A DNA stretch of 64,000 nucleotides from Phycisphaerales bacterium (GCA_003142595.1 PLMU01000010.1:98412-162411); one strand, 5' to 3'; numbered from the stretch's first letter, positions 2,538-50,588 are shown. The notes: generated by a model not told the origin, from the sequence alone. Translations and numbers: made by a program.

Positions 2538-4067
2538 CTATGAAAGCATTTTTGGGAAGATGCCGTATTTTTTGATTTTGTATCCGAGAATTCGCTCTGT
2601 CAAACCCAATTCTTTTGCCGCGTTTCTTTGCTGGCCGCTGAATTTTTTGAGAGAGTCGATAATAAGTTCTTTTTCCTTGTTTTCGATAATTTCCGTAAGC
2701 GACCGTCCCTGCGAGGTATCGCCTTTTTTAATCATTTGCAGCGATGGCGGCAAATGCTCAGAGCGTATGACATCTTCGTTGCATAGTAATACCGCCCGTT
2801 CGACGCAGTTTTCAAGTTCCCTAATATTGCCCGGCCAGTGGTAGCTTGTGAGCATTTCAATGGCGGGCGTTGATATCCTTGTAATTCGTTTGTTGTTTTC
2901 TTTTGAGAGCTTCTCGAGAAAGTAATCCGCCAGGAGCATTATATCGTCTTTGCGTTCCCGCAGCGGCGGAAGAAAAATCGGAAAAACGTTAATCCTGTAA
3001 TAAAGGTCTTCCCTGAAAAGCCTTTCCTTGATTTGTTCTTCGAGATTCTTATTGGTTGCGACGATAATTCTGACATTTGCTTTAATGGTTTCAGTGCCGC
3101 CGACGCGTTCAAATTCCCTGAATTGTATAATTCGAAGCAATTTGACCTGAAGATTTATCGAGAAGTCGCCAATTTCGTCGAGGAAAATCGTTCCGCCGTT
3201 AGCTCTTTCGAATCTGCCTATTTTTCTTTCCGTTGCGCCGGTAAAAGAACCTTTTTCGTGTCCGAACAGTTCGCTTTCCAGCAGCGTTTCCGGCAGGGCG
3301 GTGCAGTTTACCTTCACGAAAGGCTTTGTCGCTCTGCTGCTGTTATAATGTATAGCGTGGGCTACGAGATCTTTACCGGTCCCGCTTTCGCCTCGAATCA
3401 AAACGGTTGCGGTGCTGTCGGCCACCTGCTCGATAAGCCGGTAAACCTGTTTCATCGCGTTGCTTGTGCCGACCATATTATCGATATTGAAATGGCTTTT
3501 TAATTCCTGTCTGAGCCGCAGGTTTTCTTCTGAAAGCTGTCTGCGGTCGGATTCAACAAGCTTATTCAGTTTTACGGCCTGGGCGACCATAGTCGCTATG
3601 ATATTTAAGAGGTTCAGATTTGCATCGACATCATCGTTTTTCTGAACGTGCTTATCTACGCTCAACGCCCCGATAGTTTTGCCTTCAAGTTTAATCGGCA
3701 CACAGTAGAATGCGACCTGTTTGCCCTGTATTTCTTTTCTTGAGCGGGTCTTGTGCAGAAATCGGCTGTCTTTTGAGATGTCAGGAACAACGATTTCTTT
3801 GCCTGTCTGAACGACTGTGCCTGTGATACCTTCGCCAATTTTGTAACTGCCTAATTGTTTTGATTCCTCGCTCAGGCCGTGCGCCACTTTTATTTTTATC
3901 GTTTCGGTTTCCGCTTCCAGAAGGGTGATAGTGCCTCGCTGCAGTTTCAAATGCGTATCGAGCGATTTTAAAATTGCTTTAAATGTCTGTTCGAGGTCCA
4001 GCGACTCAGCGAAGACTTTTGCCATATCGCCCAATAACTGAACTTCTTTGGATAGGGTTATAGTCAT
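2538..4067 (-). CDS. Sigma-54-dependent transcriptional activator, GAF sensor + AAA+ + Fis-type HTH (NifA-like architecture)
   Basis: N-terminal GAF-like region, Walker [31 protein letters not shown] (GAFTGA-type loop), RVGG, and a C-terminal HTH ([24 protein letters not shown]). Confidence 0.9.
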
Positions 4068-4222
4068 ATTTCTTTATCCTATATAGTATACAAAATTGTA
4101 GGCAAATTACAATAAATTACAATATTGTTTTTATAGGCGATATGCAAGGAGTTTTTTTGAGAATTGCTAAAAGATTCTAATTGCCTGTTAAAACAGGAGT
4201 TATAATCTGAATTTATAAAACA

Positions 4223-5674
4223 TCAGATGCCTCTTAATAAGATGTTGCGGGTCTTGTGCAAATCTTCCTGTTTAGCCAAAACCAACAGGGTGTCGTGGGC
4301 CTGGAGTTTAGTATTACCTTTGGGGACAATGAACCTTTTTTCCCTGCGGATTAATAATATAAGCGTTTCGCGCGGCAATCCTATTTCAGAAATATCCTTG
4401 CCGACTATCGAAGACTCAGGCGGAATGTCGTATTCGCGTGATTGCGTATCAATATCCTCAGTTTTATCAAACTCCAGCGGATAGCGAGGTCTGTGCTTTA
4501 TGGGATAATAAACTTTTAACCATCGCGCCAGCGGCAGAAGCAATTTGCCCTGCAGCAATACGGATGTAAGAACGATGAAAAATACTATGTTGAAAATTTT
4601 ATTCGAACCCGGATAGCCGACCATTAAAGGGAATGTCGCCAATATAATCGGCACGGCGCCTCTCAATCCAGCCCAGGATGCCAGAATTTTTTCATTGAAA
4701 GTAAAACTGCTTCTAAACAGGCAAATAAAAACTGCAATCGGCCGGGCAATCAGCATAAGAAAAACTGAAATCATAAGTCCCGGCCCAATGATGCCTACCA
4801 GTTGCGAAGGAATAACAAGAAGGCCAAGAACAATGAACATTGCAATCTGTGCCAGCCAGGCAAGGCCGTTATGGAAACGTGTTAAACTGCGTTTATATGG
4901 GAAATCGCTATTGCCCAGCACTATGCCGAAAATATAAACCGCCAGAAATCCGTTTCCTCTTAAAATTTCGGTAAGACTGTAAACCAGCATTACTATCGTT
5001 ATACTTAAAACCGGATACAGGCCTTCATAATCGAGATGTATCCTGTTAAAAACTAAAGAGGAAATTTTTCCTATGCCCAGCCCCAATGCCGCGCCGCAGG
5101 ACATACTAATGACAAAGCTTAAAACCATTTGGCTGGCTTTTAAATCGGCACCCATAAACTGAATAAGAGTTACCGTTAAAAAGACAGCCATAGGGTCATT
5201 ACTTCCGCTTTCGAACTCAAGCAATTGCTTGAGATTTCCTTTAAGGCCGATATTTCGTGAGCGAAGCACAGTAAAAACCGCAGCAGCGTCGGTTGACGAA
5301 ACGATAGCTCCCAACAGCATACCTTCTTTAAGCGAAAAATGTAAAATTATACGGGCGAATAATCCTACGGCAATCGCGGTGATAAATACGCCGACAGACG
5401 ACAGCAGGATTCCCCTTGCCAGCACAGGACGCACGCTTACCCAGTCAGTTTCCATCGCGCCTGAGAAAAGAATGTAAACAAGAGCGATTGTGCCGAACAG
5501 TTTCGCAAGACCCGCGTTGTTAAAGTAGAGTCCTCCCGGCCCATCGGAGCCTGCCAGCATTCCAATCCCCAAAAACAGAATCAGCGCAGGAATACCGAAT
5601 TTTTCGGATAACTTACTCGAGAAAATACCCATCAGCAGTAACGTTGCGGCAATCAGAAGGTAATATGTTGCCAT
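4223..5674 (-). CDS. K+/H+ (cation/proton) antiporter, NhaP2/CvrA type with C-terminal TrkA-C domain
   Basis: ~12 TM segments. The N-terminus LSEKFGIPALILFLGIGMLAGSDGPGG and the ESGSNDPMAV motif fit the type. The C-terminal soluble domain (IVGKDISEIGLPRETLILLIRR...L.AHDTLLVL) is typical of TrkA-C. Confidence 0.85.
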   Translation of the reverse strand: MATYYLLIAATLLLMGIFSSKLSEKFGIPALILFLGIGMLAGSDGPGGLYFNNAGLAKLFGTIALVYILFSGAMETDWVSVRPVLARGILLSSVGVFITAIAVGLFARIILHFSLKEGMLLGAIVSSTDAAAVFTVLRSRNIGLKGNLKQLLEFESGSNDPMAVFLTVTLIQFMGADLKASQMVLSFVISMSCGAALGLGIGKISSLVFNRIHLDYEGLYPVLSITIVMLVYSLTEILRGNGFLAVYIFGIVLGNSDFPYKRSLTRFHNGLAWLAQIAMFIVLGLLVIPSQLVGIIGPGLMISVFLMLIARPIAVFICLFRSSFTFNEKILASWAGLRGAVPIILATFPLMVGYPGSNKIFNIVFFIVLTSVLLQGKLLLPLARWLKVYYPIKHRPRYPLEFDKTEDIDTQSREYDIPPESSIVGKDISEIGLPRETLILLIRREKRFIVPKGNTKLQAHDTLLVLAKQEDLHKTRNILLRGI

Positions 5675-7916: not shown

Positions 7917-10409
7917 GTGACACGCGAAAGTTCACATATTATCCTATCAGCAATTATTCTGATAGTTCTTGCTGCCGGAGTTGTCGCAGCGGTATCTCAA
8001 AGCGGTTGCGACTGCAACACAGCAAAGACTGTTTCCCCAGAGAATAAGCTTGTTAAGCCTCTTGAGATTATGAAAGGCTTTGAAGAGGGAAATGAAAAAG
8101 TCAAGGTCATCGTCAATCTGGTCAAACCCGAGCAGTTACTGGAAACCGTCAACTGGCGGTCGAAAAGTTCATTGGAAAATCTTCGCAGCGAAATAAAATC
8201 CAGGCAGGAGCGGACATTAGCGACTCTGGCGCCGAGCGAATATAAGCTGCGACACAAATTTGAAAATCAGGCGGGGTTTTCCGCGGAGGTTACGCTGGAT
8301 TGCCTGAGCAAATTAATGGACGACGCCAACGTCGTATCGATTGAGCCGGTTTACCAATTGCAGAAACATCTGGCGCAGGGCATACCTCTGATAAACGGTA
8401 TGGTATACCGTTCGACTTATAATGGGCAGGGCGTTTCAATCGCTATCTGCGATACCGGCGTTGATTATACTCATCCGATGCTCGGCGGCGGGGGCTTTCC
8501 AAACAGCAAGGTCATCGGCGGCTACGATTTCGGTGACAAAGATTCAGACCCGATGCCGACAGAAGCCCACGGCACCTGCTGCGCCGGTATTGCCGCAGGA
8601 AATCTCGGCACTGTAGGCGATTATATCGGCGGTGTTGCTTACGGCGCAAAAATTTATGCTCTGAAAGTCGAAAACAGCGCCGGCTATATTTACGATGATT
8701 CTATAATTGCCGCGTGGAACTGGTGCATTACCCACAAAAACGATAATTCAGCGTATCCGATTCTTGTCATCAGCAATAGTCTGGGAGCCAGCAGGTACTA
8801 CAGCGCCTGCGACAGTTCAGAAACTGCATTCGCAACCGCCGCAAACAACACTGTTGCAGCGGGAATTACGATTTTGGCATCATCGGGAAACGATGGATAC
8901 TGCGATTCGATAGCCACACCGGCCTGTCTGAGCAATATCATTTCAGTTGGAGCCGTTTATGACGCGGCTTTCGGAACATTTTATCCCTGTGTCGATGCGG
9001 CTTCGTGTGCAGCCAAACAATCGACGACTGGCTGCACCACCGGTTATTATGCCACCGACATATCAGCAGCGGACAAGGTAACATCTTATTCGAATACTGC
9101 CTCATTTTTGAATATGCTTGCTCCTTCTAATCAGGCTTACACTACCGACATTGTCGGTTCAGCGGGTTATTCAACCGGCGATTATTATTCGGAATTCGGC
9201 GGAACTTCGGCGGCAAGTCCTTACGCCGCTGGAGCCGTTGCCTGTCTGCAATCGGCGGCAAAGGAAATTACTGGAAATTATCTTTCACCCGCTCAGGTTA
9301 AATCTATCCTGATTTCAACAGGCAATAATATAACCGACACAAAGGTTTCAATTACAAAGCCTCGAATCAATCTGGGTAACGCCATTGAAACCCTGGAGCC
9401 GAATTCGAATCCCTGCACGGATGTTACGATAGGAACCGGAACTTCGAGTTGGAACTATCCGATGCATACAAAAAATGATGACAGCAGGACACAGGTCATA
9501 TATCTGGCTTCTGAAATTGGTACTTCCGGCATTATCAATAGCCTTTCACTTAATGTAACAACTATACCTGGCCAGATAATGCATAACTGGACGATTCGAA
9601 TAAAGTACACAACCCTGAGCGCCTATAGCACTTGCTCGCTTGATTCGACCGGCTGGACAACTGTTTATCAGGCCACTGAGCCTCGCGGCAGTACAGGATG
9701 GCGGACTTTTACGTTTTCAACGCCTTTTCTATACAGCGGTACTTCTAATTTGCTTATTGATTTCAGCTATAACAATAGTTCCAAAACATCTAATGGTGCG
9801 TGCGCATATTCGACGCCTGGAAACTACAGAAGCGTTTACGCCTATTCAAACAGTACTAACGGCGACCCGCTTAGCTGGTCAGGAACCACATTTCCATCAA
9901 CGACCTGCAGTACCAATGTGCCTAATATACGCTTAACGGTTTGCCAGCCACAGGAGCCGAACGCTCCGTTTTTACACGCCGAATCTGCTTTTACTTCGGG
10001 ACTGTGCAATACGATTTTCTGGGGCACGGTTACGGATGCCAATCAATATTATGCTCAATGTTCTGCCGACCCGAATTTTTCTGTTATCGACAGCAACAGC
10101 GGCTGGATTACCGATGCGAATTACCAGTTCTGCGGATTGGTTAGCGGCCAGACTTATTATTATAGAGTAAAAGCGAGAAGTCAGTATCTTGTGGAAAGCG
10201 GCTGGTCGAATGTCGTCTCGTCGCGGCAGTGCAATATACCCGGAGATTTTCAGCCGGACTGTGCTGTTGACTTAAACGATTTAATGATAATGGCCAACCA
10301 GTGGCTGCAATCTTCCGGCACACTTTCAGCGGATATCAATCAGGATGGGATAGTAAACTTTATCGATTTTGCCGAATTGGCAAATCACTGGCTACAGGGC
10401 ACTCAATAG
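7917..10409 (+). CDS. Secreted subtilisin-family (S8) serine peptidase with FN3-like region and C-terminal dockerin-like repeat
   Basis: GTG start after AGGAAG. Has an N-terminal TM/signal. Catalytic triad contexts: AICDTGVDYTHP (Asp), HGTCCAGIAAG (His), GGTSAASPYAAGAVA (Ser). C-terminus has DLNDLMIMANQW...DINQDGIVNFIDFAELANHW (dockerin/EF-hand-like). Confidence 0.85.
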   Translation: MTRESSHIILSAIILIVLAAGVVAAVSQSGCDCNTAKTVSPENKLVKPLEIMKGFEEGNEKVKVIVNLVKPEQLLETVNWRSKSSLENLRSEIKSRQERTLATLAPSEYKLRHKFENQAGFSAEVTLDCLSKLMDDANVVSIEPVYQLQKHLAQGIPLINGMVYRSTYNGQGVSIAICDTGVDYTHPMLGGGGFPNSKVIGGYDFGDKDSDPMPTEAHGTCCAGIAAGNLGTVGDYIGGVAYGAKIYALKVENSAGYIYDDSIIAAWNWCITHKNDNSAYPILVISNSLGASRYYSACDSSETAFATAANNTVAAGITILASSGNDGYCDSIATPACLSNIISVGAVYDAAFGTFYPCVDAASCAAKQSTTGCTTGYYATDISAADKVTSYSNTASFLNMLAPSNQAYTTDIVGSAGYSTGDYYSEFGGTSAASPYAAGAVACLQSAAKEITGNYLSPAQVKSILISTGNNITDTKVSITKPRINLGNAIETLEPNSNPCTDVTIGTGTSSWNYPMHTKNDDSRTQVIYLASEIGTSGIINSLSLNVTTIPGQIMHNWTIRIKYTTLSAYSTCSLDSTGWTTVYQATEPRGSTGWRTFTFSTPFLYSGTSNLLIDFSYNNSSKTSNGACAYSTPGNYRSVYAYSNSTNGDPLSWSGTTFPSTTCSTNVPNIRLTVCQPQEPNAPFLHAESAFTSGLCNTIFWGTVTDANQYYAQCSADPNFSVIDSNSGWITDANYQFCGLVSGQTYYYRVKARSQYLVESGWSNVVSSRQCNIPGDFQPDCAVDLNDLMIMANQWLQSSGTLSADINQDGIVNFIDFAELANHWLQGTQ

Positions 10410-12531: not shown

Positions 12532-13317
12532 ATGAAAAAGTTAGTAACAATTTGTGCAGTAGCAGTAACTATTTTAGCAATTAGCAGTGCGGCGCAGGCC
12601 ATCATCTCAGGCATCGGTACCCCCACCAGCTCCTTCGCCAGTATCAATTTCGATGACACCACTTCGTTGAACCCTTCAGCAGTGCCCGGCATCACAAATT
12701 ATACTACCAGCGCGAGCACGTGGAACGGATCGGCCCTCACCATGCTAACGCAGACCGATGGCACCACGCTCGACCAAGCCAAGGGCGAACTCCGCGGGGA
12801 CATCTTCACTCCGACGAGCTATACCGTCAGTTTGAACAGCGTCACGCTCACCCAGTCAGCCGGAAACACCGGCTATGCCCACCTTAATCTCAGTTTCAAC
12901 ATCCAGTACCTGTTGGATAGTGGTGGGCTGGCCAGCCAGGCCACGCTCTTCCCGACCTTCGCCGTGAATGGCACCGTCCAGCCCGGAGGCATAGGCTCCA
13001 GCTTCGGCGGCAACATCCAATACTGGGGCATGGACTCCAGCTATAACCCATATTTGCTTGATACCGTGACTTACACCCCCGCCATCTGGACCACGCCTGG
13101 CCCCTTCAACAGCACCATCTCTGGCGTATCGGCCAACATCTTTACACCTCTGCTGCCGGGCACGGTGGGAGGGAATATTTCCACGCTTACCCTGATCGGC
13201 AACTTCAGCTTCATGGTGGACCCTGCCACGATAAGCCTCGAAACCATTCCCGAACCGGCAACAATGGCGTTGCTTGGTTTAGGCGTCTTGGGTTTGCTAA
13301 AAAAACGCAGGGCATAA
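12532..13317 (+). CDS. PEP-CTERM sorting-domain secreted protein
   Basis: Signal peptide MKKLVTICAVAVTILAISSAAQA. C-terminal IPEPATMALLGLGVLGLLKKRRA (PEP motif + TM + basic tail). GGAGG RBS ahead of the ATG. Much more C/G-ending codon use than its neighbours. Confidence 0.8.
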   Translation: MKKLVTICAVAVTILAISSAAQAIISGIGTPTSSFASINFDDTTSLNPSAVPGITNYTTSASTWNGSALTMLTQTDGTTLDQAKGELRGDIFTPTSYTVSLNSVTLTQSAGNTGYAHLNLSFNIQYLLDSGGLASQATLFPTFAVNGTVQPGGIGSSFGGNIQYWGMDSSYNPYLLDTVTYTPAIWTTPGPFNSTISGVSANIFTPLLPGTVGGNISTLTLIGNFSFMVDPATISLETIPEPATMALLGLGVLGLLKKRRA

Positions 13318-13456: not shown

Positions 13457-14170
13457 TTATGCGAGAGATTTTATAAATTGAACTGCCTGTTTAGTAAAAG
13501 CGCCGTCAACCCATCGCGTTGGGCTGCGTTGAATGCTTAGTTTCCCCCCAAAATTCCCAAAGATTTTTCGCATTTCAGGTGACAAAATCTTTAAAGGTTT
13601 GCCTGCTCGGTCCTGCCCCATCGTGCTGATTAAAACCGCTTTACTCAACATGTGGCTGTTACGAGAACCCTTGACCAAAACAAGATTATTTTTTTGTTGC
13701 TCGTATATGCTTCTATGACGCACATGGAAATTATCGCCAAATAATTCCTGTATTTGAACAGGCGTAAATCCACTCGCGTATCCAGCAGCAGAGATTTCAA
13801 AATACCCCATTAGATATAATGCTGGTTCAGACTTGTAATCCCATCCTTCCAAACCACAATAGAAAATCAAATAATCGCCTTGTTGCAAATGTCGCAAACC
13901 AGCTTTAGGCGAGGTCGGGTCCCCATATGTGAAAGTGACAAATTCCGGGTCAAAGTGTATGGATTGATTGGTTACTTTAGCCTTGCGGGTTTCTGGAAAA
14001 TAATCTACCAGCTTTTTGCCATGTTTGCCTGTTGTGTTGCCATAAGTGCGTTCATCTTTTCTAAGGCCGTCAGGTATCGGGATGTACTCAAATGTACCAT
14101 CCTGAAATAATGGCCCGTGTATGCCTCCTGAACCGGTATCAATTCCTATTCTGACCAATGCGACTTTCAT
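13457..14170 (-). CDS. Uncharacterised protein, second gene of the coupled pair; resembles Nmad3-type 'nucleotide modification associated' proteins (from memory, unverified)
   Basis: 237 aa with no signal peptide or TM. N-terminus MKVALVRIGIDTGSGGIHGPLFQDGTFEYIPIPD, then HFDPE, QQGDYLIFYCGLEGW, and PALYLMGYFEI. Its start lies 3 nt after the stop of the upstream gene. Confidence 0.55.
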   Translation of the reverse strand: MKVALVRIGIDTGSGGIHGPLFQDGTFEYIPIPDGLRKDERTYGNTTGKHGKKLVDYFPETRKAKVTNQSIHFDPEFVTFTYGDPTSPKAGLRHLQQGDYLIFYCGLEGWDYKSEPALYLMGYFEISAAGYASGFTPVQIQELFGDNFHVRHRSIYEQQKNNLVLVKGSRNSHMLSKAVLISTMGQDRAGKPLKILSPEMRKIFGNFGGKLSIQRSPTRWVDGAFTKQAVQFIKSLA

Positions 14171-14173
14171 AAT

Positions 14174-14911
14174 TTATCTTTCTTCCAGAATCGAATAGAG
14201 CAATAAATTGAGATCATATTTCCTTTGTCCGCGATGAAGTGGACACGAATGAAACAATTTCGGTTCATCCCACAGGAAGCTGTATTGCGTGTCCCCTATT
14301 AATAGTGCCGCCTTACGACCACTTACACCCTTTTCATAATTTATATCCTTATGCCAATTGTTTGGATTCTTTGGATTGGCGTGAACATGATTCTGAATAG
14401 GCGGTCGGTAGTTATGAGGATTAAAGACATTTTTGTTAATCAGCTTGCTCTTAGGTTTAAATATGTCTCCAAACTTATCTTTATGGGCTAATTTGGCCTT
14501 TTTTACGGCATCAGGCAAATTCTCGGAAAACCAAAGGTCGCAATAAGATTTGAAAGCAATTTTGACTTTCATGAGATAAATTAAAGCGTTTTTTCCTTTT
14601 CCTTCCTTTTTTCCAGTAAATCCTGCAATCCAAATATTATCGCACCACTTATCTATAGTCCGAAATGTACGCATATAATGTTTACACGTGCAAAGCGATA
14701 TAACATCGCCTTGAAAGTTAGGGGCACTTCCTTTTTGAACGAAATCGCCTTCATGATTTTTGACAGTATCAACGATGTAACTATACACAGTTGCCGGAGT
14801 TTTACCTATCTTTCGTCGCAAGTCCTTAAGCGAGAGTTTTAGGTTTTTTGCCAGGCGCCCAGTTTGAGGAAAGGGCTGGTGGGAAAAGTCGGATATACAA
14901 CTCATGGTCAA
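14174..14911 (-). CDS. Uncharacterised protein, first gene of the coupled pair; resembles Nmad2-type 'nucleotide modification associated' proteins (from memory, unverified)
   Basis: 245 aa. VYSYIVD...GSAPNFQGDVISLCTCKHYMR...IWIAGFTGKK...ALIYLMKVKI...FGDIFKPK...HVH...AALLIGDTQYSFLWDEP. A Cys-x-Cys-x-His cluster is present. AAAGGAA RBS ahead of the ATG. Confidence 0.55.
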   Translation of the reverse strand: MTMSCISDFSHQPFPQTGRLAKNLKLSLKDLRRKIGKTPATVYSYIVDTVKNHEGDFVQKGSAPNFQGDVISLCTCKHYMRTFRTIDKWCDNIWIAGFTGKKEGKGKNALIYLMKVKIAFKSYCDLWFSENLPDAVKKAKLAHKDKFGDIFKPKSKLINKNVFNPHNYRPPIQNHVHANPKNPNNWHKDINYEKGVSGRKAALLIGDTQYSFLWDEPKLFHSCPLHRGQRKYDLNLLLYSILEER

Positions 14912-24121: not shown

Positions 24122-25045
24122 ATGACAATCGAAGAAGAAATTAAGCAAAAGGCTTTTTCGCTGGGTTTTGACCTGGTGGGCCTCACTTCAGCCGATGATA
24201 TTGATTCGCTGCAAATCCAAAAATTCAAAAACTGGCTCGACGCAGGCTGTAATGGCCGGATGGATTTTTTGGCCGCCAATATCGAAAAGCGTTTCAGCCC
24301 CGTTTCAATTCTTCCTGACGCCAAATCCGTAATTTGTGTTGCACTTAATTATAAATTGCCGCAGCATCCGGAAAAAGATTATCTTAAAATCGCTTCTTAT
24401 GCACTGTATCCGGACTATCATAAATTCATTAAGGAAAAACTATTTATTCTTGCTGATTTTTTGAAAAGTAAGAATGAAAATTCAAAATTAAAAATTTGTG
24501 TCGATTCTTCGCCTATCGCGGAAAAGGCTCTTGCCCTGCGGGCAGGACTTGGATTCATAGGGAAAAATCGTTTGCTTATAAATCCGAAATTCGGTTCTTT
24601 TTTATTGCTTGGCGAAATTATTACCAATCTTCCGCTGAAACCGGATAATTCTTTCAATGGGTTTTCCTGTGGAGATTGCCGAAAGTGTATCGAGGCCTGC
24701 CCGACCGCGGCTTTATCTGTCGATGGTTTTGATGCCCGCAGATGTATAAGCTATCTTACGATTGAGCACAAAGGAAGAATTTCTACAGAATTGAAAAGCA
24801 AAATGGACTCTCATCTTTTCGGCTGTGAAAAATGTCTGCTCGCTTGTCCGTATAATGAAAAATCGCCGGCGTGTGAAAAGCAAAATTACGATTTTACCCC
24901 TAAGGGGGTTGAACTTGGGCCTGATGCTGTGCTTGGCTGGTCAAAAACTGATTTTGAAACCTTCGCTGCAAATTCGGCAATGAAACGTACCGGTCTTCGT
25001 CGAATAAAACGCAATGCCCTTATCTGCAAAAAAAATCAGCAATAA
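24122..25045 (+). CDS. queG: tRNA epoxyqueuosine(34) reductase
   Basis: N-terminal QueG-type domain (GFDLVGLTSAD...W...G..G.M.FL). Two 4Fe-4S motifs, CGDCRKCIEACP and CEKCLLACP. HEAT-like C-terminus. Confidence 0.88.
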   Translation: MTIEEEIKQKAFSLGFDLVGLTSADDIDSLQIQKFKNWLDAGCNGRMDFLAANIEKRFSPVSILPDAKSVICVALNYKLPQHPEKDYLKIASYALYPDYHKFIKEKLFILADFLKSKNENSKLKICVDSSPIAEKALALRAGLGFIGKNRLLINPKFGSFLLLGEIITNLPLKPDNSFNGFSCGDCRKCIEACPTAALSVDGFDARRCISYLTIEHKGRISTELKSKMDSHLFGCEKCLLACPYNEKSPACEKQNYDFTPKGVELGPDAVLGWSKTDFETFAANSAMKRTGLRRIKRNALICKKNQQ

Positions 25046-27812: not shown

Positions 27813-29387
27813 ATGTTTGATTCTTCAAAGCACAGATATAGATTTAGAATAATCATACCGGGTTATCCGGCCTTTAATATTTATTCGCACATTGCCGTAA
27901 AGACGACGGCACTGGGGCCCGTTTGCGTTGCCAGCGCCGCTAACAAGATGGCGAAATGGGATGTTGAGGTTATAGACGAAAACAATCTCGGCAAATTCGG
28001 CCCTGTATCCGAAACCGGCGGAGCCGACCACGAATTTTTGCAGCAGCAGAGGCCTGCCGATATAATTGGTTTGTATGGCGGCCTTACCAGTACCATACCG
28101 AGGCTTTATCAGATAGCGCAGTTCTACAAAAAAAAGGGAATCATCACGATTGCAGGCGGTCAGCATTTCGTCGAAGATAACACATCCGACGCTCTTTCTT
28201 CCGGCATCGACTACGTTGTTTTCGGAGAGGCCGAGGAAACAATTACCGAACTGTTGGATGCGATACAAAACGGCACCGACGCGAACGATATAAAAGGAAT
28301 TGCGTTTCTCAGGAACGGCAAAATTGTTTTCACTGAAAAAAGAGAGCAGCTGACCAACTTTGACAAACTGCCTTTGCCCGATTTTTCTCTGGTTCGCTAC
28401 GCGACTATGAAAATTTATCCTGTCGAAAGAATACGCGGCTGCGGTATGGATTGTGAGTTCTGCACAGTCAAGGGCAAGCCGAGACATGCCGAGCCGGAAA
28501 GGCTGCTCGAGCACATCAGTTCTCTTGTTGAGACGAGAAACGCCAAACATTTTTTCGTAGTTGACGACCTTTTCAGTCAGCAGCGTGACGAAACGCTAAG
28601 GCTCTGCAATATGCTTGCCGCTTACCAGAAACGCATAGGCCGAAGGCTGGACATAACCGTTCAGATAAGGCTGGACAAAGCTCGCGATACCGAGTTGCTT
28701 TCCGCGATGTGGCAGGCAGGCGTTCAAACTGTTGCCATTGGTTTTGAATCGCCCATCGATACAGAATTAAAAGCGATGAATAAGCATATGAGTTCTGCCG
28801 ATATGGTTTCCTGGGCAAGAACATTTCACAAATTCGGATTTTTGGTCCACGGTATGTTTATCTTTGGTTATCCGCTCAAGGACACCACTGGTCTCGATAT
28901 CCCCGTTGAGCAGCGTGTCAAATATTACAAGGATTTTATTAGTGAAGCCCAAATCGACACAGTCCAGGTTATGCTTCCTGTTCCTCTTCCCGGCACCGAA
29001 TTGAGTCAAAGATTGGCCAGGCAGAACCGTATTTATCCGCTCGATGATATCGGCTGGCAATATTATGACGGCAATTTTCCGTTATTTGAGCCCGACGAGC
29101 CGATGACTGCCGAACAGATGCATCTCTGCGCTAAAAAAATTATGGGCAGGTTATATCGCTTCAAATATATGTTTCTCATAGTCCTGCATACCTTTTCATT
29201 TCCCGCCATAATTTTCTTTTTACATAACTTTCAGCTTGGCTGGCAAAAGTGGTATCGTCCGTGGCGCAACAGTCTGATTCGTTTTGGCGGCTGGATGATT
29301 TTGAAGAAATGGAACACAGCGTTTAGGCAGAACAAATTTTCGCAGAAATTGCAGTCTGCTCATCAGCACCTGCTGCATGCCCGGTAG
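27813..29387 (+). CDS. B12-binding-domain radical SAM protein with hydrophobic C-terminal tail
   Basis: The N-terminal Rossmann-like B12-binding region (GLYGGLTS...TIAGGQH) is followed by RIRGCGMDCEFCTV (CxxxCxxC) and a C-terminal TM-like segment. Confidence 0.8.
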   Translation: MFDSSKHRYRFRIIIPGYPAFNIYSHIAVKTTALGPVCVASAANKMAKWDVEVIDENNLGKFGPVSETGGADHEFLQQQRPADIIGLYGGLTSTIPRLYQIAQFYKKKGIITIAGGQHFVEDNTSDALSSGIDYVVFGEAEETITELLDAIQNGTDANDIKGIAFLRNGKIVFTEKREQLTNFDKLPLPDFSLVRYATMKIYPVERIRGCGMDCEFCTVKGKPRHAEPERLLEHISSLVETRNAKHFFVVDDLFSQQRDETLRLCNMLAAYQKRIGRRLDITVQIRLDKARDTELLSAMWQAGVQTVAIGFESPIDTELKAMNKHMSSADMVSWARTFHKFGFLVHGMFIFGYPLKDTTGLDIPVEQRVKYYKDFISEAQIDTVQVMLPVPLPGTELSQRLARQNRIYPLDDIGWQYYDGNFPLFEPDEPMTAEQMHLCAKKIMGRLYRFKYMFLIVLHTFSFPAIIFFLHNFQLGWQKWYRPWRNSLIRFGGWMILKKWNTAFRQNKFSQKLQSAHQHLLHAR

Positions 29388-34173: not shown

Positions 34174-35817
34174 CTATTTTGGGGAGGCGGGAGATAATGG
34201 GCCGGTGACGAAATCGGCGTCAATCGCGCCTTTATCAACCATTTTCTTCAAAAGTGCAACTATGTCGGAATATGAAACGCCCAGGCCGATGGGCTTCTTT
34301 TCCTTTACTTCCCTGACTGCTATCTCGCCAAGATTTCTTATTATGTCTGCGACCCTGAGCGAACATTTGAACGGGCCCATCAGCTCGTTTGTAATCGGAT
34401 GTTTTCGCATAATCGAGACACCATTGCCGTCCGGCAGAGAATTAATAATAATCTGCGCATCGTCCGATTCGACATAAATATTTTTTCTGCAGTTAAGCGG
34501 TGCGCCGAGCAGGACAATGCCGGGCTGGCCGGTCCTTGAGACGTAAATGGTTTTAGGGCCGGTCTGGATGACCTGGTCAATATAAAAATCATTCGCGACG
34601 AGAGAATGAATGATGGAAGTATCGTCATATTTTTGCAGAAATTTGTAGGCGTTATAGCGGACGTCGAAATTATCGTCGCGGACGAGTCTTGTCATCAGTG
34701 AGATAACATCGCTTTTAGGGGCGTAATTGCCGATGGCCTGGATAGCGGCGATGCGGAAAGTCGAGGTTTTGTCCTGCGCGAAATCCCTGAGCGGTTTGAG
34801 GGTGGAGTTGTCGCCGATAACAAGCAGACATTTAGCGGCGGCGAATCTTGTCGAGTCGTCTTTTGAGTTAAGAAGGGGCTGAAGTTTATCGATGGCGTTT
34901 TTGCCGATGGCTTCGAGGCCGGTTTGATATTTCGATTTGTCGGAAGCGGTTTTAAGATTTTCAACGAGCCAGTCAATATGTTTTTTTTCATTGGCGGCGG
35001 TGTCGGTGATATAAAGCGACCTTACAAGCTCAATGAATCTTTCTTTCTTGTCTTTGTAATCGGCGGGGACAGAGAGATAAATAATCTGCGACGAGGCAGC
35101 GGAAGCGATGTCTTTGCCGAAACGCTGATTAATGTGGTTTCTGATAATGGCAGCGATTTCGAAATCGGGTTTTAAAATAGAAAGGGTAAACTGGTAGTTT
35201 TCCATAACTCTTCCGCCTCCGAGGACGATGCCTTTGCGAGGGTCGGCATTAGGGTCTGAAAGTTTGTCGATGTAAACCGGGCCTGCGGCAATTGCGAGAG
35301 TTTTCGAGGCTTGGAGGGCTTCTTCGATTTGAGCGACGAATTTGAGGTCGGTAGTATAAAGTCTGCCGTTGAGCAGAGAGGTGGTCTGTGTGCCGGGCAG
35401 CGCTCTTACGGTAACATCGAAAGACTGATGCTTCGAAGCGCCGGGCGTGATGTCGCCTTCGACAACGACGACAGCGGTGTCGAGACTGCTAATCATCGCA
35501 TCAGCGCTCACGATGTCTCTGGGGCCGAGCTGTGTAAGGATGTATTGCCGCAAATAATCCCTTATTAGGGGCGGACATTCGGATGAGCCTGTGTTCGACA
35601 GGCCGACGACAAGGCCAATGCCTTTAACGGGAATGGGAGAAAAAGCCATAAACTCCGCAAGGTCGCCGATGGTTTTGTCGAGCTGCGGCTGAGAAGCAGT
35701 TTCGGTTTTTGGGACCTTCTTTTTGGCGAAGCTGTCGGACTGCGGGAAGCACAGGAGAATGGCAAAAATTAGAAAAACTGAAAAGATTAGTTTTTTTTGG
35801 GTGTTTTGATTTTCCAT
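34174..35817 (-). CDS. FlgI (flagellar P-ring)-homologous protein with a ~130-aa HEAT-repeat insertion
   Basis: Signal peptide present. IGDLAEF...VKGIGLVVGLSNTGS, DTAVVVVEGDITPGASKHQSFDVTVRALPGTQTTSLLNGRLYTTDLK, and LKPDFEIAAIIRNHINQRFG align by eye to E. coli FlgI blocks. The C-terminus AQIIINS...LRVADIIRNLG...DIVALLKKMVDKGAIDADF also matches FlgI. The middle LLNSKDDSTRFAAAKCLLVIGD...DKTSTFRIAAIQAIGNYA...DDNFDVRYNAYKFL is HEAT/PBS-lyase-like. 547 aa versus ~365 for E. coli FlgI. Confidence 0.7.
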   Translation of the reverse strand: MENQNTQKKLIFSVFLIFAILLCFPQSDSFAKKKVPKTETASQPQLDKTIGDLAEFMAFSPIPVKGIGLVVGLSNTGSSECPPLIRDYLRQYILTQLGPRDIVSADAMISSLDTAVVVVEGDITPGASKHQSFDVTVRALPGTQTTSLLNGRLYTTDLKFVAQIEEALQASKTLAIAAGPVYIDKLSDPNADPRKGIVLGGGRVMENYQFTLSILKPDFEIAAIIRNHINQRFGKDIASAASSQIIYLSVPADYKDKKERFIELVRSLYITDTAANEKKHIDWLVENLKTASDKSKYQTGLEAIGKNAIDKLQPLLNSKDDSTRFAAAKCLLVIGDNSTLKPLRDFAQDKTSTFRIAAIQAIGNYAPKSDVISLMTRLVRDDNFDVRYNAYKFLQKYDDTSIIHSLVANDFYIDQVIQTGPKTIYVSRTGQPGIVLLGAPLNCRKNIYVESDDAQIIINSLPDGNGVSIMRKHPITNELMGPFKCSLRVADIIRNLGEIAVREVKEKKPIGLGVSYSDIVALLKKMVDKGAIDADFVTGPLSPASPK

Positions 35818-46879: not shown

Positions 46880-46950
46880 TTTTTTAAATTTTTCTATTGC
46901 ATTCATTTTTTGGCGATGGTATTTTTTGTTTGTTCTTTTGAAATGAAATA

Positions 46951-47108
46951 TTGATTGCAGAATAGGGAACACGGTGAAAAGCCGTGACGGTCGCGCCGCT
47001 GTAAGCGTTTGTACCTGATTAATCAGGAGACCGAAAGAAGTTGTACCACTGTCCAAAGTGGACGGGAAGGGTTCTTTCGGTGGACGCAAGTCAGAAAACC
47101 TGCCTGTA
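46951..47108 (+). promoter_or_regulatory. Cobalamin (B12) riboswitch aptamer
   Basis: AATAGGGAACACGGTGAAAAGCCGTGACGGTCGCGCCGCTGTAAGCG, the B12-box region CCACTGTCCAAAGTGGACGGGAAGG, and the 3' AGTCAGAAAACCTGCC all track the conserved blocks of the E. coli btuB leader and the Rfam RF00174 consensus as I remember them. Confidence 0.88.
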
Positions 47109-47189
47109 ATCTAATTATTGTTGAGAGTTCTCGCGTAAGGAACACCGACAAACGCACTCTGTATGGGTGTTTTTGCTTTGGATATTGAA

Positions 47190-47225
47190 GCCGCCGTTCC
47201 CGCAAAAGGAACGGCGGTTTTTTTT
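47190..47225 (+). terminator. Intrinsic terminator = likely expression platform of the B12 riboswitch
   Basis: CCGCCGTTCC (47191-47200) pairs with GGAACGGCGG (47208-47217) around a 7-nt loop, followed by T8. It lies between the aptamer and the first plausible start codon. Confidence 0.75.
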
Positions 47226-47336
47226 ATTGGCTCTTTAATTATTTTTGCAATTCCACAAAAGCAAAATGCTTTTGGTCTGCCGGTTTGCGGCCGCCTACGG
47301 GCGGCCGCAGCGAGACCCTTGTGTGAAAATTTAGAA

Positions 47337-48077
47337 ATGGAGAAGAAGATGAAGTTTAAAAATTTGGTAGCTTTGATTATTGTTTTTGGGATTGCAGGCG
47401 TGGTCAATGCAGGTATTGCAAATTTTGACGACTTAAGTTTGAGTGCAAATTCCTATTGGAACGGTTCAGCCGGTACAGGTGGTTTTACCAGCGGCTCGGC
47501 TGTGTTTAATAATAACTATGATTCTATCTATCACAGTTGGGACGGCTGGGCGTATTCAAATAAGTCGGACACAACAACGCCGGGATATGCAAATCAATAC
47601 AGCGCCATCACAGGTTCGGCTCAAAGCGGTTCAAACTATGGTGTTGCTTATGTCGGCTGGAATGCACCACCTTCGATAACATTAAACAGCGCCTGCATTG
47701 TGGACGGTATTTATGTAACCAATACCACTTATGCTTATCTTGCAATGAAAGATGGCCAAGGCCCTGCTAATAAATTTAGTGACCAGGACTGGTTCAAGTT
47801 AAGCATTACAGGCAAAGATGAATCAGGTACATCAACCGGTACTATTAATTTCTTTCTTGCTGATGCCGGCCATATAGTCAATACGTGGGAATACGTCGAT
47901 CTCCGTACGCTGGGAGCGATTAAGAGCCTTGAGTTTAGTCTCAGTTCGAGCGATAACGACCCGGTTTTTGGAATGAACACGCCGGCGTATTTTGCGATGG
48001 ATACGGTTGTGCCTGAGCCGGCTACGGTGATTTTGTTAAGTTTCGGCGGATTATTGCTTCGCAGGAGAAGGAAATAA
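47337..48077 (+). CDS. PEP-CTERM-anchored secreted protein, body resembling the DUF4465 family
   Basis: MEKKMKFKNLVALIIVFGIAGVVNA signal peptide. FDDLSLSANSYWNGS...FNNNYDS...W.GWAYSN..D......NQYSAITG....GSNYGVAY...YVTNTTYAYLAMKDG...KF...DWFKLSITG...TG.INFFLAD...IV..WEYVDL matches my recollection of DUF4465. C-terminal VPEPATVILLSFGGLLLRRRRK. The start could instead be ATG 47349. Confidence 0.7.
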   Translation: MEKKMKFKNLVALIIVFGIAGVVNAGIANFDDLSLSANSYWNGSAGTGGFTSGSAVFNNNYDSIYHSWDGWAYSNKSDTTTPGYANQYSAITGSAQSGSNYGVAYVGWNAPPSITLNSACIVDGIYVTNTTYAYLAMKDGQGPANKFSDQDWFKLSITGKDESGTSTGTINFFLADAGHIVNTWEYVDLRTLGAIKSLEFSLSSSDNDPVFGMNTPAYFAMDTVVPEPATVILLSFGGLLLRRRRK

Positions 48078-48078
48078 A

Positions 48079-48981
48079 TTGCGAAATGGAATAATTATTT
48101 TATTGCCGCTGTTTATTGCTGCTTTATCTTTTGGCGGTCCTTATGCGCCGCCTGTAGGTCAGAGTGGCTCAACAGCAGTTTATATGAATGACTCCAGTAT
48201 TGTTGCCTGGGCGACAAGTGCTGTTATCGAGCGAGGGTTTATTGATATCAGCAAACCTGAATTGGGATATGTCAGTTTTGGCGATGTCTCAAATTGTCTC
48301 GGGCATGCTCAAGGGGACATTTATAACGTGGTAAGTCTCGGCGATGGGGGAATCGCCACGCTTGGTTTTCCCAAGCCTATTAAAAATGGACCCGGCTATG
48401 ATTTTGTAGTTTTTGAAAACAGCTATGGCGATACTTTTTTGGAGCTTGCCTTTGTCGAGGTCAGCAGCGACGGCAATAATTTCTTTCGTTTCAATGCAGT
48501 TTCACTGACAGACCCTAATATACAGGTCGGCACTTACGGTGAGGTGGATGCGACCAATATCAATAATCTTGCTGGTAAGTATAGACGTGGTTACGGCACA
48601 CCGTTTGACCTGCAGGAACTTGCCGGTATTGAAGGACTAGATATTAATTCGGTTAAGTATGTGAGGATAATAGATGTAGTCGGCTGCATTCAGTCGGCTG
48701 ATTTTAATAATGACGGATTGGTAAATTTTTCCGATTATGCCATCCTTGCAGCGGCGTATTTGAGCCGAACAAATGGGCCTCGATGGAATGCACGGTGCGA
48801 TATTGCCGCCCCTTATGGGGTTATTGATATGGCTGATATCAAAGAGTTTGTGTCTCGATGGCTTACTGAATGGTCAAGTATGGACTCTGCCGGCCATAAG
48901 ATAAATGACCCATGGCCGACCCCTTTCGATACGGGCGGGTTTGATTTAGATGCGGTAGGTGTAATTCATCAGCAGCCATAG
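48079..48981 (+). CDS. Secreted hypothetical protein with dockerin-like calcium-binding repeat
   Basis: TTG start 1 nt after the upstream stop, with AGGAGAAGG upstream. Signal peptide present. DFNNDGLVNFSDYAILAAAY and DIAAPYGVIDMADIKEF form a dockerin-type pair. Confidence 0.6.
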   Translation: MRNGIIILLPLFIAALSFGGPYAPPVGQSGSTAVYMNDSSIVAWATSAVIERGFIDISKPELGYVSFGDVSNCLGHAQGDIYNVVSLGDGGIATLGFPKPIKNGPGYDFVVFENSYGDTFLELAFVEVSSDGNNFFRFNAVSLTDPNIQVGTYGEVDATNINNLAGKYRRGYGTPFDLQELAGIEGLDINSVKYVRIIDVVGCIQSADFNNDGLVNFSDYAILAAAYLSRTNGPRWNARCDIAAPYGVIDMADIKEFVSRWLTEWSSMDSAGHKINDPWPTPFDTGGFDLDAVGVIHQQP

Positions 48982-48995
48982 ATTATGAGTAATTT

Positions 48996-49781
48996 ATGAT
49001 TATGTCAAAAAAAGCATTTACACTTGTAGAACTGCTGGTTGTTATGGCGGTAATAGCTTTGCTTTTGGGTATATTGATACCTGCTTTGGGCGCAGCACGT
49101 TCGCAAGGTAAAACGATTGTCTGCAAAAACAACCTTCGACAGCTTGTACTGGCGAATAGCGGTTATGCAGTAGAAAACGACGGCTGTTATGTTTTGGCGG
49201 CGTCGGATATTTGGACCACGAACAATCAGCGATGGCATGGAGTACGTGAGGATAATTACAGTCCATTTGATTGGCACAAAAGTCCTCTTGTTTCTTATTT
49301 TTCCGGCGGGGGTGTCAAAGAATGTCCTCAAATGGTTAATTTCAGAAAAGGCGAACCTTCGGATTTTGACTATGAAGATGGCTGCGGCGGATATGGTTAT
49401 AATATGACCTATATAGGCTCAAGAATATGGGAGCGCAATGCTGCCGAAAATTGCAAAAGGCCGACTAAAAATACTGAAATAGCTGTATCGGGGCAGACAG
49501 TAATGTTTGCTGATTGTGCAATGGCAAGAAAAGATGGCGGCAGTATATATTTTATTGAATACTCGTTTGCAGAACCGCCGTTTAATGGATTGGATTATGC
49601 CTGGCCTTCAATACATTTCAGACATAGAGGCAAAGCAAATGTTGGATGGGCGGATGGACATATAAGTTCGGAAAAAATGACGAAATTCAGCATGTTGATT
49701 GACAACTCCAGAATAAATTCGGCAGATGTGATGTTGGGTTGGTTTGGACCTATAGATAACAGTTTGTTCGATTTAAAATAA
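48996..49781 (+). CDS. Prepilin-type N-terminal cleavage/methylation domain protein with H-X9-DG motif (PVC-type pseudopilin-like)
   Basis: KKAFTLVELLVVMAVIALLLGILIPAL (class III signal) and HRGKANVGWADGH (H-X9-DG). Confidence 0.8.
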   Translation: MIMSKKAFTLVELLVVMAVIALLLGILIPALGAARSQGKTIVCKNNLRQLVLANSGYAVENDGCYVLAASDIWTTNNQRWHGVREDNYSPFDWHKSPLVSYFSGGGVKECPQMVNFRKGEPSDFDYEDGCGGYGYNMTYIGSRIWERNAAENCKRPTKNTEIAVSGQTVMFADCAMARKDGGSIYFIEYSFAEPPFNGLDYAWPSIHFRHRGKANVGWADGHISSEKMTKFSMLIDNSRINSADVMLGWFGPIDNSLFDLK

Positions 49782-49832: not shown

Positions 49833-50588
49833 GTGAAGACTTTTTTACAGGCAACAGGAAGTTATCTTAAAAACTTGCAGCAGCTTTTCTGGCAGAATTA
49901 CTGCCGTTGCTGTAATGTGGTTATCGCTGAGGACGATAAATATTTCTGCTCCGACTGCTGGTCGCAGCTTGGTTATTGCTTCGTTGATAGTTTCTGCCGG
50001 CGATGCGGCAGAGAAATCAGTGCGTTCGGACAGCTGCCCGACGGCTGCGCTCACTGCCAAAATGAAAATTTTCATTTCGATTCAATCGCCTGTGCGGGGA
50101 TATATAAAGAGCCTTTGAGCAATCTGATTGTAAAATTCAAACTTGCCGACCGGACATATCTTTTGCCTGCGCTGGAGGATTTTGCGAGGAGCGCTGTTTA
50201 CAAAGCTGATTTTTTCAATTCGGTCGATTTTGTCGTGCCTATGCCGCTGCACTGGCGAAGAAGATTTCAGCGAGGTTTTAATCAGTCGGCATTTATCGCA
50301 AAAAGTATAAAAATTCCTAATGCCGGTTTCAATACAGACCTTGTTAAAATTCGTCATACTCAGGACCAAACGGCAGTTACATTTGCGGAAAGGAAAAAGA
50401 ATCTGCAAGGGGCGTTTGCGGTCAGAAATGGACATAATTTCGAAGGCAAAAATGTCTGTCTTATCGATGATGTAAAGACAACTGGTGCGACACTTAACGA
50501 ATGCGCGAAGGTATTAAAAGAAGCCGGAGCCCAAAAGGTTTTTGCGTTTGTATTGGCAGTTGCAGGGCAAAAAGATAAAGATAATTAG
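49833..50588 (+). CDS. comF: ComF-family protein (phosphoribosyltransferase-like)
   Basis: N-terminal double CxxC zinc finger (CRCCN...CSDCW; CRRCG...CAHC) and the C-terminal PRTase motif VCLIDDVKTTGATL. Confidence 0.8.
   Translation: MKTFLQATGSYLKNLQQLFWQNYCRCCNVVIAEDDKYFCSDCWSQLGYCFVDSFCRRCGREISAFGQLPDGCAHCQNENFHFDSIACAGIYKEPLSNLIVKFKLADRTYLLPALEDFARSAVYKADFFNSVDFVVPMPLHWRRRFQRGFNQSAFIAKSIKIPNAGFNTDLVKIRHTQDQTAVTFAERKKNLQGAFAVRNGHNFEGKNVCLIDDVKTTGATLNECAKVLKEAGAQKVFAFVLAVAGQKDKDN

Follow-up and report, generated by a model that had tools for sequence, protein, structure and literature searches.

What does a cobalamin (vitamin B12) riboswitch control when the genes behind it encode neither a transporter nor cobalamin biosynthesis? 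The question is raised by a 64-kb stretch of a Phycisphaerales genome (GCA_003142595.1, PLMU01000010.1:98412-162411, 64,000 nucleotides [nt]; from here on, the window), in which such a riboswitch is followed, all on the plus strand, by gene 1 (a DUF4465 protein with a PEP-CTERM tail), gene 2 (a secreted protein), and gene 3 (a prepilin-like protein). The gene spacing agrees with an earlier note on this DNA, which had described three tightly packed genes with gaps of 1 nt (gene 1 to gene 2) and 14 nt (gene 2 to gene 3). The nearest relatives are metagenome-assembled genomes (MAGs) of Sedimentisphaerales (Phycisphaerae, Planctomycetota, PVC group), and four relatives with protein identities of 73 to 92% were aligned to the locus. 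We consider it probable that this operon is the version used by Planctomycetota and Verrucomicrobiota (PVC) of the Btu relay for scavenging corrinoids at the cell surface and is turned on under B12 scarcity. The riboswitch regulation and the role of gene 1 are supported by sequence, homology, and literature, and the linkage of the three genes by the genetics of the loci; corrinoid binding by gene 2 and a transport role for gene 3 are what we infer.

The riboswitch aptamer matched RF00174 over the complete model (46900-47121, plus strand; cmscan 78.8 bits against a gathering score of 31.5, E = 9.7e-18, model positions 1-189 of 189), and the segment 46951-47108, which the earlier note had taken for the aptamer, is the core of this match. 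The aptamer is nearly invariant across the four relatives. Downstream, the intrinsic terminator (47187-47229, plus strand) has a 14-bp stem (47187-47221) with eight G-C pairs followed by a run of eight T, so that the strong terminator seen before is indeed there, and conserved. It is almost invariant in the relatives, with a compensatory pair of substitutions (C>T / G>A) in the stem of one of them (L002), and the region 47100-47350 folds far better than shuffled sequence (z = -5.05). The short hairpin GUUC-UCGCGUAAG-GAAC (47127-47143, plus strand), which appears in the minimum free energy fold and is invariant in 4/4 aligned relatives, is a candidate P13/L13 kissing-loop element, and its GGAAC could alternatively pair with the 5' arm of the terminator. 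Regulation by transcription attenuation, as had been suggested, is plausible.

Gene 1 (47349-48077, plus strand) encodes a BtuJ-family DUF4465 jelly-roll protein with a Sec signal peptide and a PEP-CTERM tail. The earlier note had the gene and both of these assignments (DUF4465 and PEP-CTERM) right, but not the start, which it put at 47337; a conserved ribosome-binding site (GGAGAAG) and the alignment to relatives place it at the ATG at 47349. The protein matched PF14717 with 172.7 bits (gathering score 25; E = 1.2e-50; profile positions 3-176 of 176) and, in the PDB, the B12-bound Coraliomargarita structure 9HMU (E = 2.5e-27) and BtuJ1 of Bacteroides thetaiotaomicron, 9FCT (E = 1.9e-24). Homology thus extends to BtuJ1/BtuJ2 and to D5EK51 of Coraliomargarita akajimensis (9FCT, 9I2L, and 9HMU; E values of 1e-24 to 1e-27). 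BtuJ1 and BtuJ2 of B. thetaiotaomicron are surface-exposed, riboswitch-controlled, high-affinity B12 binders (PMC12751083; 10.1101/2025.07.01.662609), and B12 binding was demonstrated in 2026 for eight divergent DUF4465 proteins, among them PVC representatives from Coraliomargarita (crystal structure 9HMU), Haloferula, and the Phycisphaerae species Mucisphaera calidilacus (PMC13398666). Judged by its sequence, gene 1 is a homologue of BtuJ and not the mere analogue of Bacteroides surface B12 binders that the earlier note had supposed. The statement made there that DUF4465 genes recur in B12-regulated loci was correct, both in the literature (PMC13398666) and in the Rfam-scanned loci described below. 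The riboswitch and BtuJ parts of the locus are already known.

Gene 1 shares with BtuJ the DE-helix tyrosine, the NTPAY HI-loop, the signal peptide, and control by a B12 riboswitch. The HI-loop motif, defined as (G/M)NTPAY with a B12-binding tyrosine (PMC13398666), reads GMNTPAYF in gene 1 and aligns to MNTPSYF of 9FCT (NTPAYF at nt 47976-47993), and Y128 (the DE-helix tyrosine), N210, T211, and P212 are invariant in our alignment of DUF4465 proteins (A3). Corrinoid binding through this tyrosine and the HI-loop is thus predicted for gene 1. The differences concern mainly the anchor: where BtuJ has a lipobox (Bacteroides) or a type IX secretion system (T9SS) tail (other members of the Fibrobacterota-Chlorobiota-Bacteroidota [FCB] group), gene 1 has a PEP-CTERM/exosortase-type tail. 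Its N terminus (MKFKNLVALIIVFGIAGVVNA followed by G) has no cysteine lipobox, unlike the Bacteroides-type BtuJ lipoproteins, and its C terminus (VPEPATVILLSFGGLLLRRRRK) combines the PEP motif, a transmembrane helix, and a basic cluster. This tail (nt 48009-48074) scored 22.7 with TIGR02595 (cut-off of 16) and 18.9 with PF07589 of Pfam, just under the gathering score of 20.7; no exosortase (EpsH) was recognized among the 37 open reading frames (ORFs) of the 64-kb window that were scanned. All PVC members of A3 end in PEP-CTERM and all FCB members in a T9SS tail. Two loops are also shortened in gene 1 compared with relatives (A3), and the operon lacks btuB and btuG.

Gene 2 (48079-48981, plus strand) codes for a secreted protein with a predicted jelly-roll core that belongs to a large family with no model in Pfam or NCBIfam. 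Of the 8,000 candidates scored in a word-indexed search, 7,992 were homologues, and a profile search of 1.84 billion cluster representatives (50%-identity clusters) found 3,068, 2,011, and 1,306 at E values of ≤1e-3, ≤1e-10, and ≤1e-30, respectively. In the family alignment (A1), the core spans ca. 230 amino acids (aa) with the motifs SLGDGG, DFAVFEN, LELAFVEVSSDG, AGKY..GYGTPFDL, and INDPWPTPF..GGFDLDAVG. The dockerin-like Ca-binding pair noticed earlier corresponds to a double F-hand module (48685-48882, plus strand; aa 203-268 of gene 2), the two repeats of which align to dockerin 2Y3N (E = 2.6e-4), with a Dockerin_1 (PF00404) score of 19.3 bits, under the gathering score of 22.9. According to A1, it is an internal insertion in Sedimentisphaerales-type members, while others carry the module at the C terminus or have a T9SS or PEP-CTERM tail instead. 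Surface proteins typically show such a "choice of anchor" pattern. As a whole, the sorting tails are split by phylum, with Por_Secre_tail on FCB gene 1 and gene 2 proteins and PEP-CTERM or no tail on those of PVC bacteria.

The association of gene 2 with B12 regulation extends far beyond the window. Matches occurred in at least 560 genomes, and we analyzed 80 gene 2 loci drawn from species representatives among the Bacteroidota, Chlorobiota, Verrucomicrobiota, and Planctomycetota. A same-strand RF00174 riboswitch was located upstream of the gene 2 homologue in 27/37 Rfam-scanned loci (12/19 plus 15/18) from the four phyla, and an nhmmer profile trained on confirmed riboswitches matched 60/80 loci, always upstream and on the plus strand, three of these matches being weak and without Rfam confirmation. 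A DUF4465 gene stood immediately upstream of gene 2 in 36/81 loci. The order in FCB genomes was riboswitch, DUF4465 or an alternative protein (C4), gene 2, TonB-dependent transporter (TBDT), DUF5074 (BtuG family), and Peripla_BP_2 (BtuF), and the adjacency of genes 1 and 2 there mirrors that of BtuJ2 (BT1957) and BtuH2 (BT1956) in B. thetaiotaomicron (PMC13616437). Consequently, DUF4465 and gene 2 also occur in Bacteroidota and Chlorobiota, and the PVC-specific apparatus envisaged in the earlier note is reduced to the PEP-CTERM tags and the prepilin-like gene 3. C4 is a 428-aa T9SS-tagged protein that stands after the riboswitch and directly before gene 2, in the place of DUF4465, in 15 FCB/Chlorobiota loci (L003, L010, L013, L017, L020, L031, L037, L038 [2697-3983], L040, L041, L050, L063, L076, and others). 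Outside the T9SS tail, it had no Pfam, NCBIfam, or PDB match, and it is a candidate for a further corrinoid binder.

Gene fusions point in the same direction. Single-ORF fusions of gene 1 to gene 2 with a PEP-CTERM tail appeared in Planctomycetes (L007 and 29/84 of the gene 3-anchored loci described below), and the reverse order, gene 2 to gene 1 with a T9SS tail, in three Bacteroidales. Since these fusions arose independently in both orders, they are strong evidence that the gene 2 and DUF4465 domains act together. Further gene 2 fusions included two DUF4465 copies, PKD domains, and DUF4430-like repeats; the last were found in four FCB proteins (P0304, P0316, P0339, and P0244), as one to five repeats of a ca. 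130-aa module partially matching DUF4430. DUF4430 is a domain of the transcobalamin C-terminal type, which suggests that these repeats are another corrinoid-binder partner of gene 2. In summary, few partners accompany BtuJ as consistently as gene 2 does over the four phyla, and the two are often fused. In a Pirellulales MAG (L004:4860-6404), a gene for a 514-aa PQQ/BamB-like beta-propeller intervenes between genes 2 and 3, downstream of the riboswitch, and is possibly a BtuG/BtuK-like binder.

What gene 2 does is harder to judge. The AlphaFold (AF2) model was mostly beta, with a predicted local distance difference test score (pLDDT) of 85 and a predicted template modeling (TM) score of 0.78, and a Foldseek search against the PDB gave weak matches, none below an E value of 1e-3 (TM scores of 0.26 to 0.29). 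First in rank was BtuG1 (8BLW chain B), which carries a BtuH-homologous B12-binding domain of ca. 250 residues (PMC10404256), and ranks 6 and 23 were BtuH2 (7BIZ); the remaining matches were CBM32 or F5/8-C jelly-rolls, including the CBM32 of AlyQ, which Putnam et al. described as the sole structural neighbour, and a modest one, of the BtuH domain (PMC8941943). Like BtuH (BtuH1, BtuH2, and the H-domain of BtuG1; 7BIZ and 8BLW), gene 2 is a domain of ca. 230 to 270 aa whose gene adjoins that of BtuJ in btu loci under riboswitch control; it can stand alone, be combined with PKD domains, or be joined to a second B12 binder, and its predicted fold resembles AlyQ CBM32, the BtuH-domain proteins being its best, albeit weak, PDB fold matches. 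Unlike BtuH, it has no detectable sequence similarity to that family, its corrinoid binding is only predicted, and it is spread far wider (FCB, PVC, and Chlorobiota; environmental and not gut). Identity with BtuK (a propeller) or BtuL (a receptor L-domain) was rejected, as the published descriptions are unlike a jelly-roll model of ca. 230 aa. On the strength of the model and the genomic context, gene 2 is most likely a BtuH-like second corrinoid-binding or hand-off module.

A serious alternative is that gene 2 does not bind corrinoids at all and acts as a Ca-dependent, lectin-like anchor or scaffold of CBM32 type, tethering BtuJ to cell-surface glycan, to extracellular polymeric substances, or to a transporter. 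We regard it as possible, although rather unlikely. The majority of the Foldseek matches are indeed carbohydrate-binding CBM32 or F5/8-C domains, the invariant acidic motifs SLGDGG, DFxVFEN, and GGFDLD are compatible with Ca sites, dockerin-like and other choice-of-anchor decorations recur across the family, and btu operons are known to include a non-binding protein, BtuL (PMC13616437). However, the top PDB fold matches are the B12-binding domains of BtuH type, the fusion partners are domains of corrinoid-binder type (DUF4465 and DUF4430-like) and not enzymes or glycan machinery, and the fusions keep gene 2 even though a PEP-CTERM or T9SS anchor is already present.

Gene 3 (48996-49781, plus strand; 261 aa) has a prepilin-type N-terminal helix and a C-terminal H-X9-DG motif, as had been recognized from the beginning. 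It scored 26.4 bits with N_methyl, 25.6 with TIGR02532 (cut-off of 16.3), and 20.1 with TIGR04294 (cut-off of 19), and the motif (H210-RGKANVGWA-D220-G221) is invariant in the gene 3 alignment (A2). With the H-X9-DG/DUF1559 paralogues of Planctomycetes, Verrucomicrobia, and Lentisphaerae (TIGR04294 and PF07596), it shares the prepilin methylation motif, the H-X9-DG, and the restriction to PVC bacteria; it had no match to DUF1559 (PF07596) at E ≤ 0.01, and its subfamily, unlike the bulk of them, has a fixed context under a B12 riboswitch. DUF1559 proteins, whose function is unknown, form the largest paralogue group in Planctopirus limnophila, with 68 members (PMC10632474). Our literature search found no paper linking H-X9-DG/DUF1559, PEP-CTERM, or Planctomycetes to B12 riboswitches.

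The context of gene 3 was remarkably constant. A homologue followed gene 2 in 10/11 PVC genome loci versus 0/69 FCB/Chlorobiota loci, and four homologues on long contigs (52 to 60% identity) all lay downstream of DUF4465 and gene 2, with RF00174 upstream. A set of 84 gene 3-anchored loci was assembled from 80 metagenome loci, recovered with the gene 3 alignment as the query, and the sampled loci L084 to L087. Among the 44 with at least 2.3 kb of upstream sequence, the riboswitch, gene 2, and gene 3 were present in 44/44 and DUF4465 also in 43; the Rfam checks of the riboswitch gave 10/10 and 5/5 confirmed. Median gaps were 19 nt between genes 1 and 2 and 13.5 nt between genes 2 and 3. Downstream of gene 3, a BtuF-like gene appeared in five loci, and in one locus (L115) Peripla_BP_2, ABC_tran, and FecCD followed, that is, a complete BtuFDC-type importer. 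The sole PVC locus without gene 3 among those seen came from an Akkermansia MAG (L078:3709-7974), which has the riboswitch and gene 2, neither DUF4465 nor gene 3, and a TonB-dependent receptor (Plug plus CarboxypepD_reg) ca. 750 nt downstream of gene 2. Therefore, this gene 3 subfamily is PVC-only and dedicated to this operon, and it holds the operon position that BtuB/BtuG occupy in FCB loci. Like BtuB-BtuG of Bacteroidota, it fills the slot after the surface binders and before btuF/btuCD; unlike them, it is prepilin-type, with neither a TonB barrel nor a beta-propeller lid, and not homologous, so that a functional equivalence is suggested solely by position and by the pattern of gene 3 versus TBDT.

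Other peculiarities were found around gene 3. In L005:3794-6727 and in P0274, one uninterrupted ORF joins a PEP-CTERM-tagged gene 2 to the gene 3 prepilin, and the ORF of L005 also includes a DUF4465 with its own signal peptide and PEP-CTERM. The topology of the joined product would run out-to-in through the PEP-CTERM helix, across a short basic linker, and in-to-out through the pilin helix, which would allow a prepilin peptidase to split it at the cytoplasmic face; the joins may reflect a genuine polyprotein, or else an artefact of assembly or gene calling. A gene resembling PP-loop ATP pyrophosphatases (PF01902) followed gene 3 on the same strand in 18 PVC loci, one of which (L154) has a radical SAM gene in between. 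In five (L130, L154 [3795-5101], L157, L160, and L161) the PP-loop gene was followed next by a DUF6580 membrane protein, which could be an inner-membrane corrinoid transporter. As a BtuM-like transporter, DUF6580 found no PDB sequence match and no NCBIfam name.

Put together, these elements suggest the following sequence of events. When cobalamin is bound, the RF00174 aptamer would favour the terminator at 47187-47229 and transcription would stop: L5-L13 kissing would stabilize the 47127-47143 hairpin, its GGAAC would be kept from pairing with the GUUCC of the terminator's 5' arm, and the terminator would form. In the absence of the ligand, read-through would lead to expression of the operon. 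The gene 1 product would then leave the cytoplasm by Sec, be anchored or processed by way of its PEP-CTERM tail, and capture corrinoids, with gene 2 as its obligatory secreted partner, probably a Ca-binding jelly-roll in physical contact with BtuJ. Gene 3, processed by a prepilin peptidase, would form the link from the binders at the surface to the periplasm and to BtuFCD, the importer, either as a pseudopilus or as an inner-membrane-anchored, envelope-spanning component. At the level of a B12-riboswitch-controlled, surface-directed corrinoid-capture operon, the proposal already made in the earlier note is supported.

Several points weigh against this scheme. The anti-terminator pairing is imperfect (8/11 positions, by eye), and ca. 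25% of the gene 2 loci have no riboswitch within 4 kb, although the real rate of riboswitch linkage is probably higher than the one counted, since some operons begin outside the 4-kb flank (e.g., L016). The fold matches of gene 2 are weak, and generic CBM32-type jelly-rolls score alike. Gene 2 has no sequence similarity to BtuH either: searches with the A1 profile, and by phmmer with a Bacteroidales member, against all PDB sequences (7BIZ and 8BLW included; E ≤ 10) recovered T9SS tails only, and membership by sequence in the BtuH family (BT1488, BT1490, and BT1956) was rejected for the absence of matches. A remote paralogy with DUF4465 was equally discarded, as hhalign of A1 against A3 matched only T9SS tails. 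For gene 3, the AF2 model (pLDDT of 56) resolved only the N-terminal pilin helix and gives no structural support for a conduit; it was too poor for a fold search. Finally, a TonB-dependent BtuB may be encoded elsewhere in these genomes. The window, where none of the 37 ORFs scanned with Pfam was a btu or cob gene and where locus-derived hidden Markov models (HMMs) of TBDT, BtuG, and BtuF had 0 matches among ORFs of at least 60 aa, in agreement with the absence of BtuB, BtuFCD, and cob genes first reported, covers only 64 kb of this genome. Similarly, TBDT or BtuG HMMs matched 0/84 gene 3-anchored loci, a count that may overlook divergent PVC receptors because the TBDT HMM was built from FCB sequences and missed the PVC receptor of L078 (the one case checked), later identified with Pfam.

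The main alternative for gene 3 is a role in export and not in uptake. Gene 3 would then be a cargo-specific type II secretion system (T2SS) pseudopilin that brings BtuJ and gene 2 across the outer membrane, the PVC counterpart of the T9SS tails, with import through an unlinked TonB-dependent BtuB. We consider this unlikely, yet several facts speak for it: the sorting systems of genes 1 and 2 switch strictly by phylum (T9SS tails in FCB, PEP-CTERM or none in PVC), gene 3 occurs only where T9SS tails are absent, public annotation labels its homologues as GspH-like type II secretion proteins, and its N terminus resembles GspG, GspH, and ComG pilins. That resemblance, however, is confined to the N-terminal helix (25 to 60 residues; 17 to 29 bits versus cut-offs of 49 to 400), far under the family cut-offs, and no T2SS ATPase, platform, or secretin gene was linked in the 84 loci. 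Moreover, gene 3 runs straight into the import genes btuF, btuD, and btuC in L115, and gene 3 and TBDT look mutually exclusive, although the TBDT case is the single locus L078. The btuFDC continuation and the pattern of gene 3 versus TBDT fit a conduit better and the swap of sorting signals fits secretion; neither settles the matter.

A bolder form of the corrinoid relay, which we hold to be distinctly unlikely as a whole, is that gene 3 forms or tips a pseudopilus that moves corrinoid, or loaded BtuJ/gene 2, over the PVC outer membrane to BtuFCD independently of TonB, and that gene 2 is an as yet unrecognized, phylum-spanning corrinoid-binding domain distantly related to BtuH. Least of all do we favour an operon for extracellular sequestration or storage of B12, a competitive reservoir like that proposed for BtuJ on vesicles, with gene 3 as an unrelated neighbour: BtuJ1 has been described as an extracellular reservoir (10.1101/2025.07.01.662609; PMC12751083) and there is no transporter in the window, but the linkage of gene 3 in 44/44 loci, the gaps of ca. 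13 nt, and the occurrence of in-frame joins speak against a neighbour by chance, and some loci continue into btuFDC, so that we find it very improbable.

The limits of the operon are less clear than its core. A ComF-like gene (double zinc ribbon plus PRTase; 49833-50588, plus strand; TIGR00201 E = 7e-34, below the cut-off) begins 52 nt downstream of gene 3. No terminator-like site was called in this interval, and the gene is possibly cotranscribed with the operon, its membership being uncertain. In 31 loci, a member of the family came after gene 3; the sequence reached 1 kb or more past gene 3 in 56 loci. The linkage could reflect shared pilus or competence-type machinery, or plain synteny among related Phycisphaerae, as an unrelated FAA hydrolase upstream is similarly conserved (20 loci versus 31 for ComF). 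At the other end, the leader has an insertion of ca. 75 nt between the terminator and the ribosome-binding site (about 47240-47315), longer in the 92% relative L001. It contains a G+C-rich hairpin (GCGGCCGCC-loop-GGCGGCCGC; 47278-47312, plus strand) with a perfect 9-bp GC stem and no T run after it, found only in the window and L001 and absent in L081 and L002, which may represent a small repeat, a mobile element, or a stabilizer of the RNA.

The rest of the window gives some idea of the host. QueG (epoxyqueuosine reductase; 24122-25045) and a radical SAM protein with a B12-binding domain (27813-29387) are probably cobamide-dependent enzymes, which makes the organism a cobamide user. The window also encodes another PEP-CTERM protein (12532-13317) and a subtilase (7917-10409) whose C-terminal dockerin is bona fide (29.4 bits), and both surface-sorting or attachment devices are in general use in this genome. 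On the minus strand, Nmad3 and Nmad2 (nucleotide-modification-associated domain) genes lie side by side (13457-14911), which is typical of defence or nucleotide-modification islands, and a FlgI (flagellar P-ring)-like region is joined to HEAT repeats in one protein (34174-35817), the neighbour of which is a TPR/PMT_2 protein.

As a shared micronutrient, B12 is of keystone importance, and its acquisition in nonmodel phyla is largely unknown. The elements newly described here are a phylum-spanning partner family, gene 2, and a dedicated PVC prepilin-like component in the place of BtuBG, with a mechanism proposed from genomic context. The published analysis of DUF4465 genome neighbourhoods used Pfam domains and could not see gene 2, for which there is no Pfam model; with this family named and tested, the Btu relay would gain a further component. 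The locus is also a simple experimental handle, with a riboswitch, three small secreted proteins, and B12-limited growth, and the context of gene 3 provides a testable functional setting for one subfamily of H-X9-DG prepilin-like proteins. If the pseudopilus conduit were true, it would be the first function for any H-X9-DG/DUF1559 member and a new route of vitamin uptake in Gram-negative bacteria.

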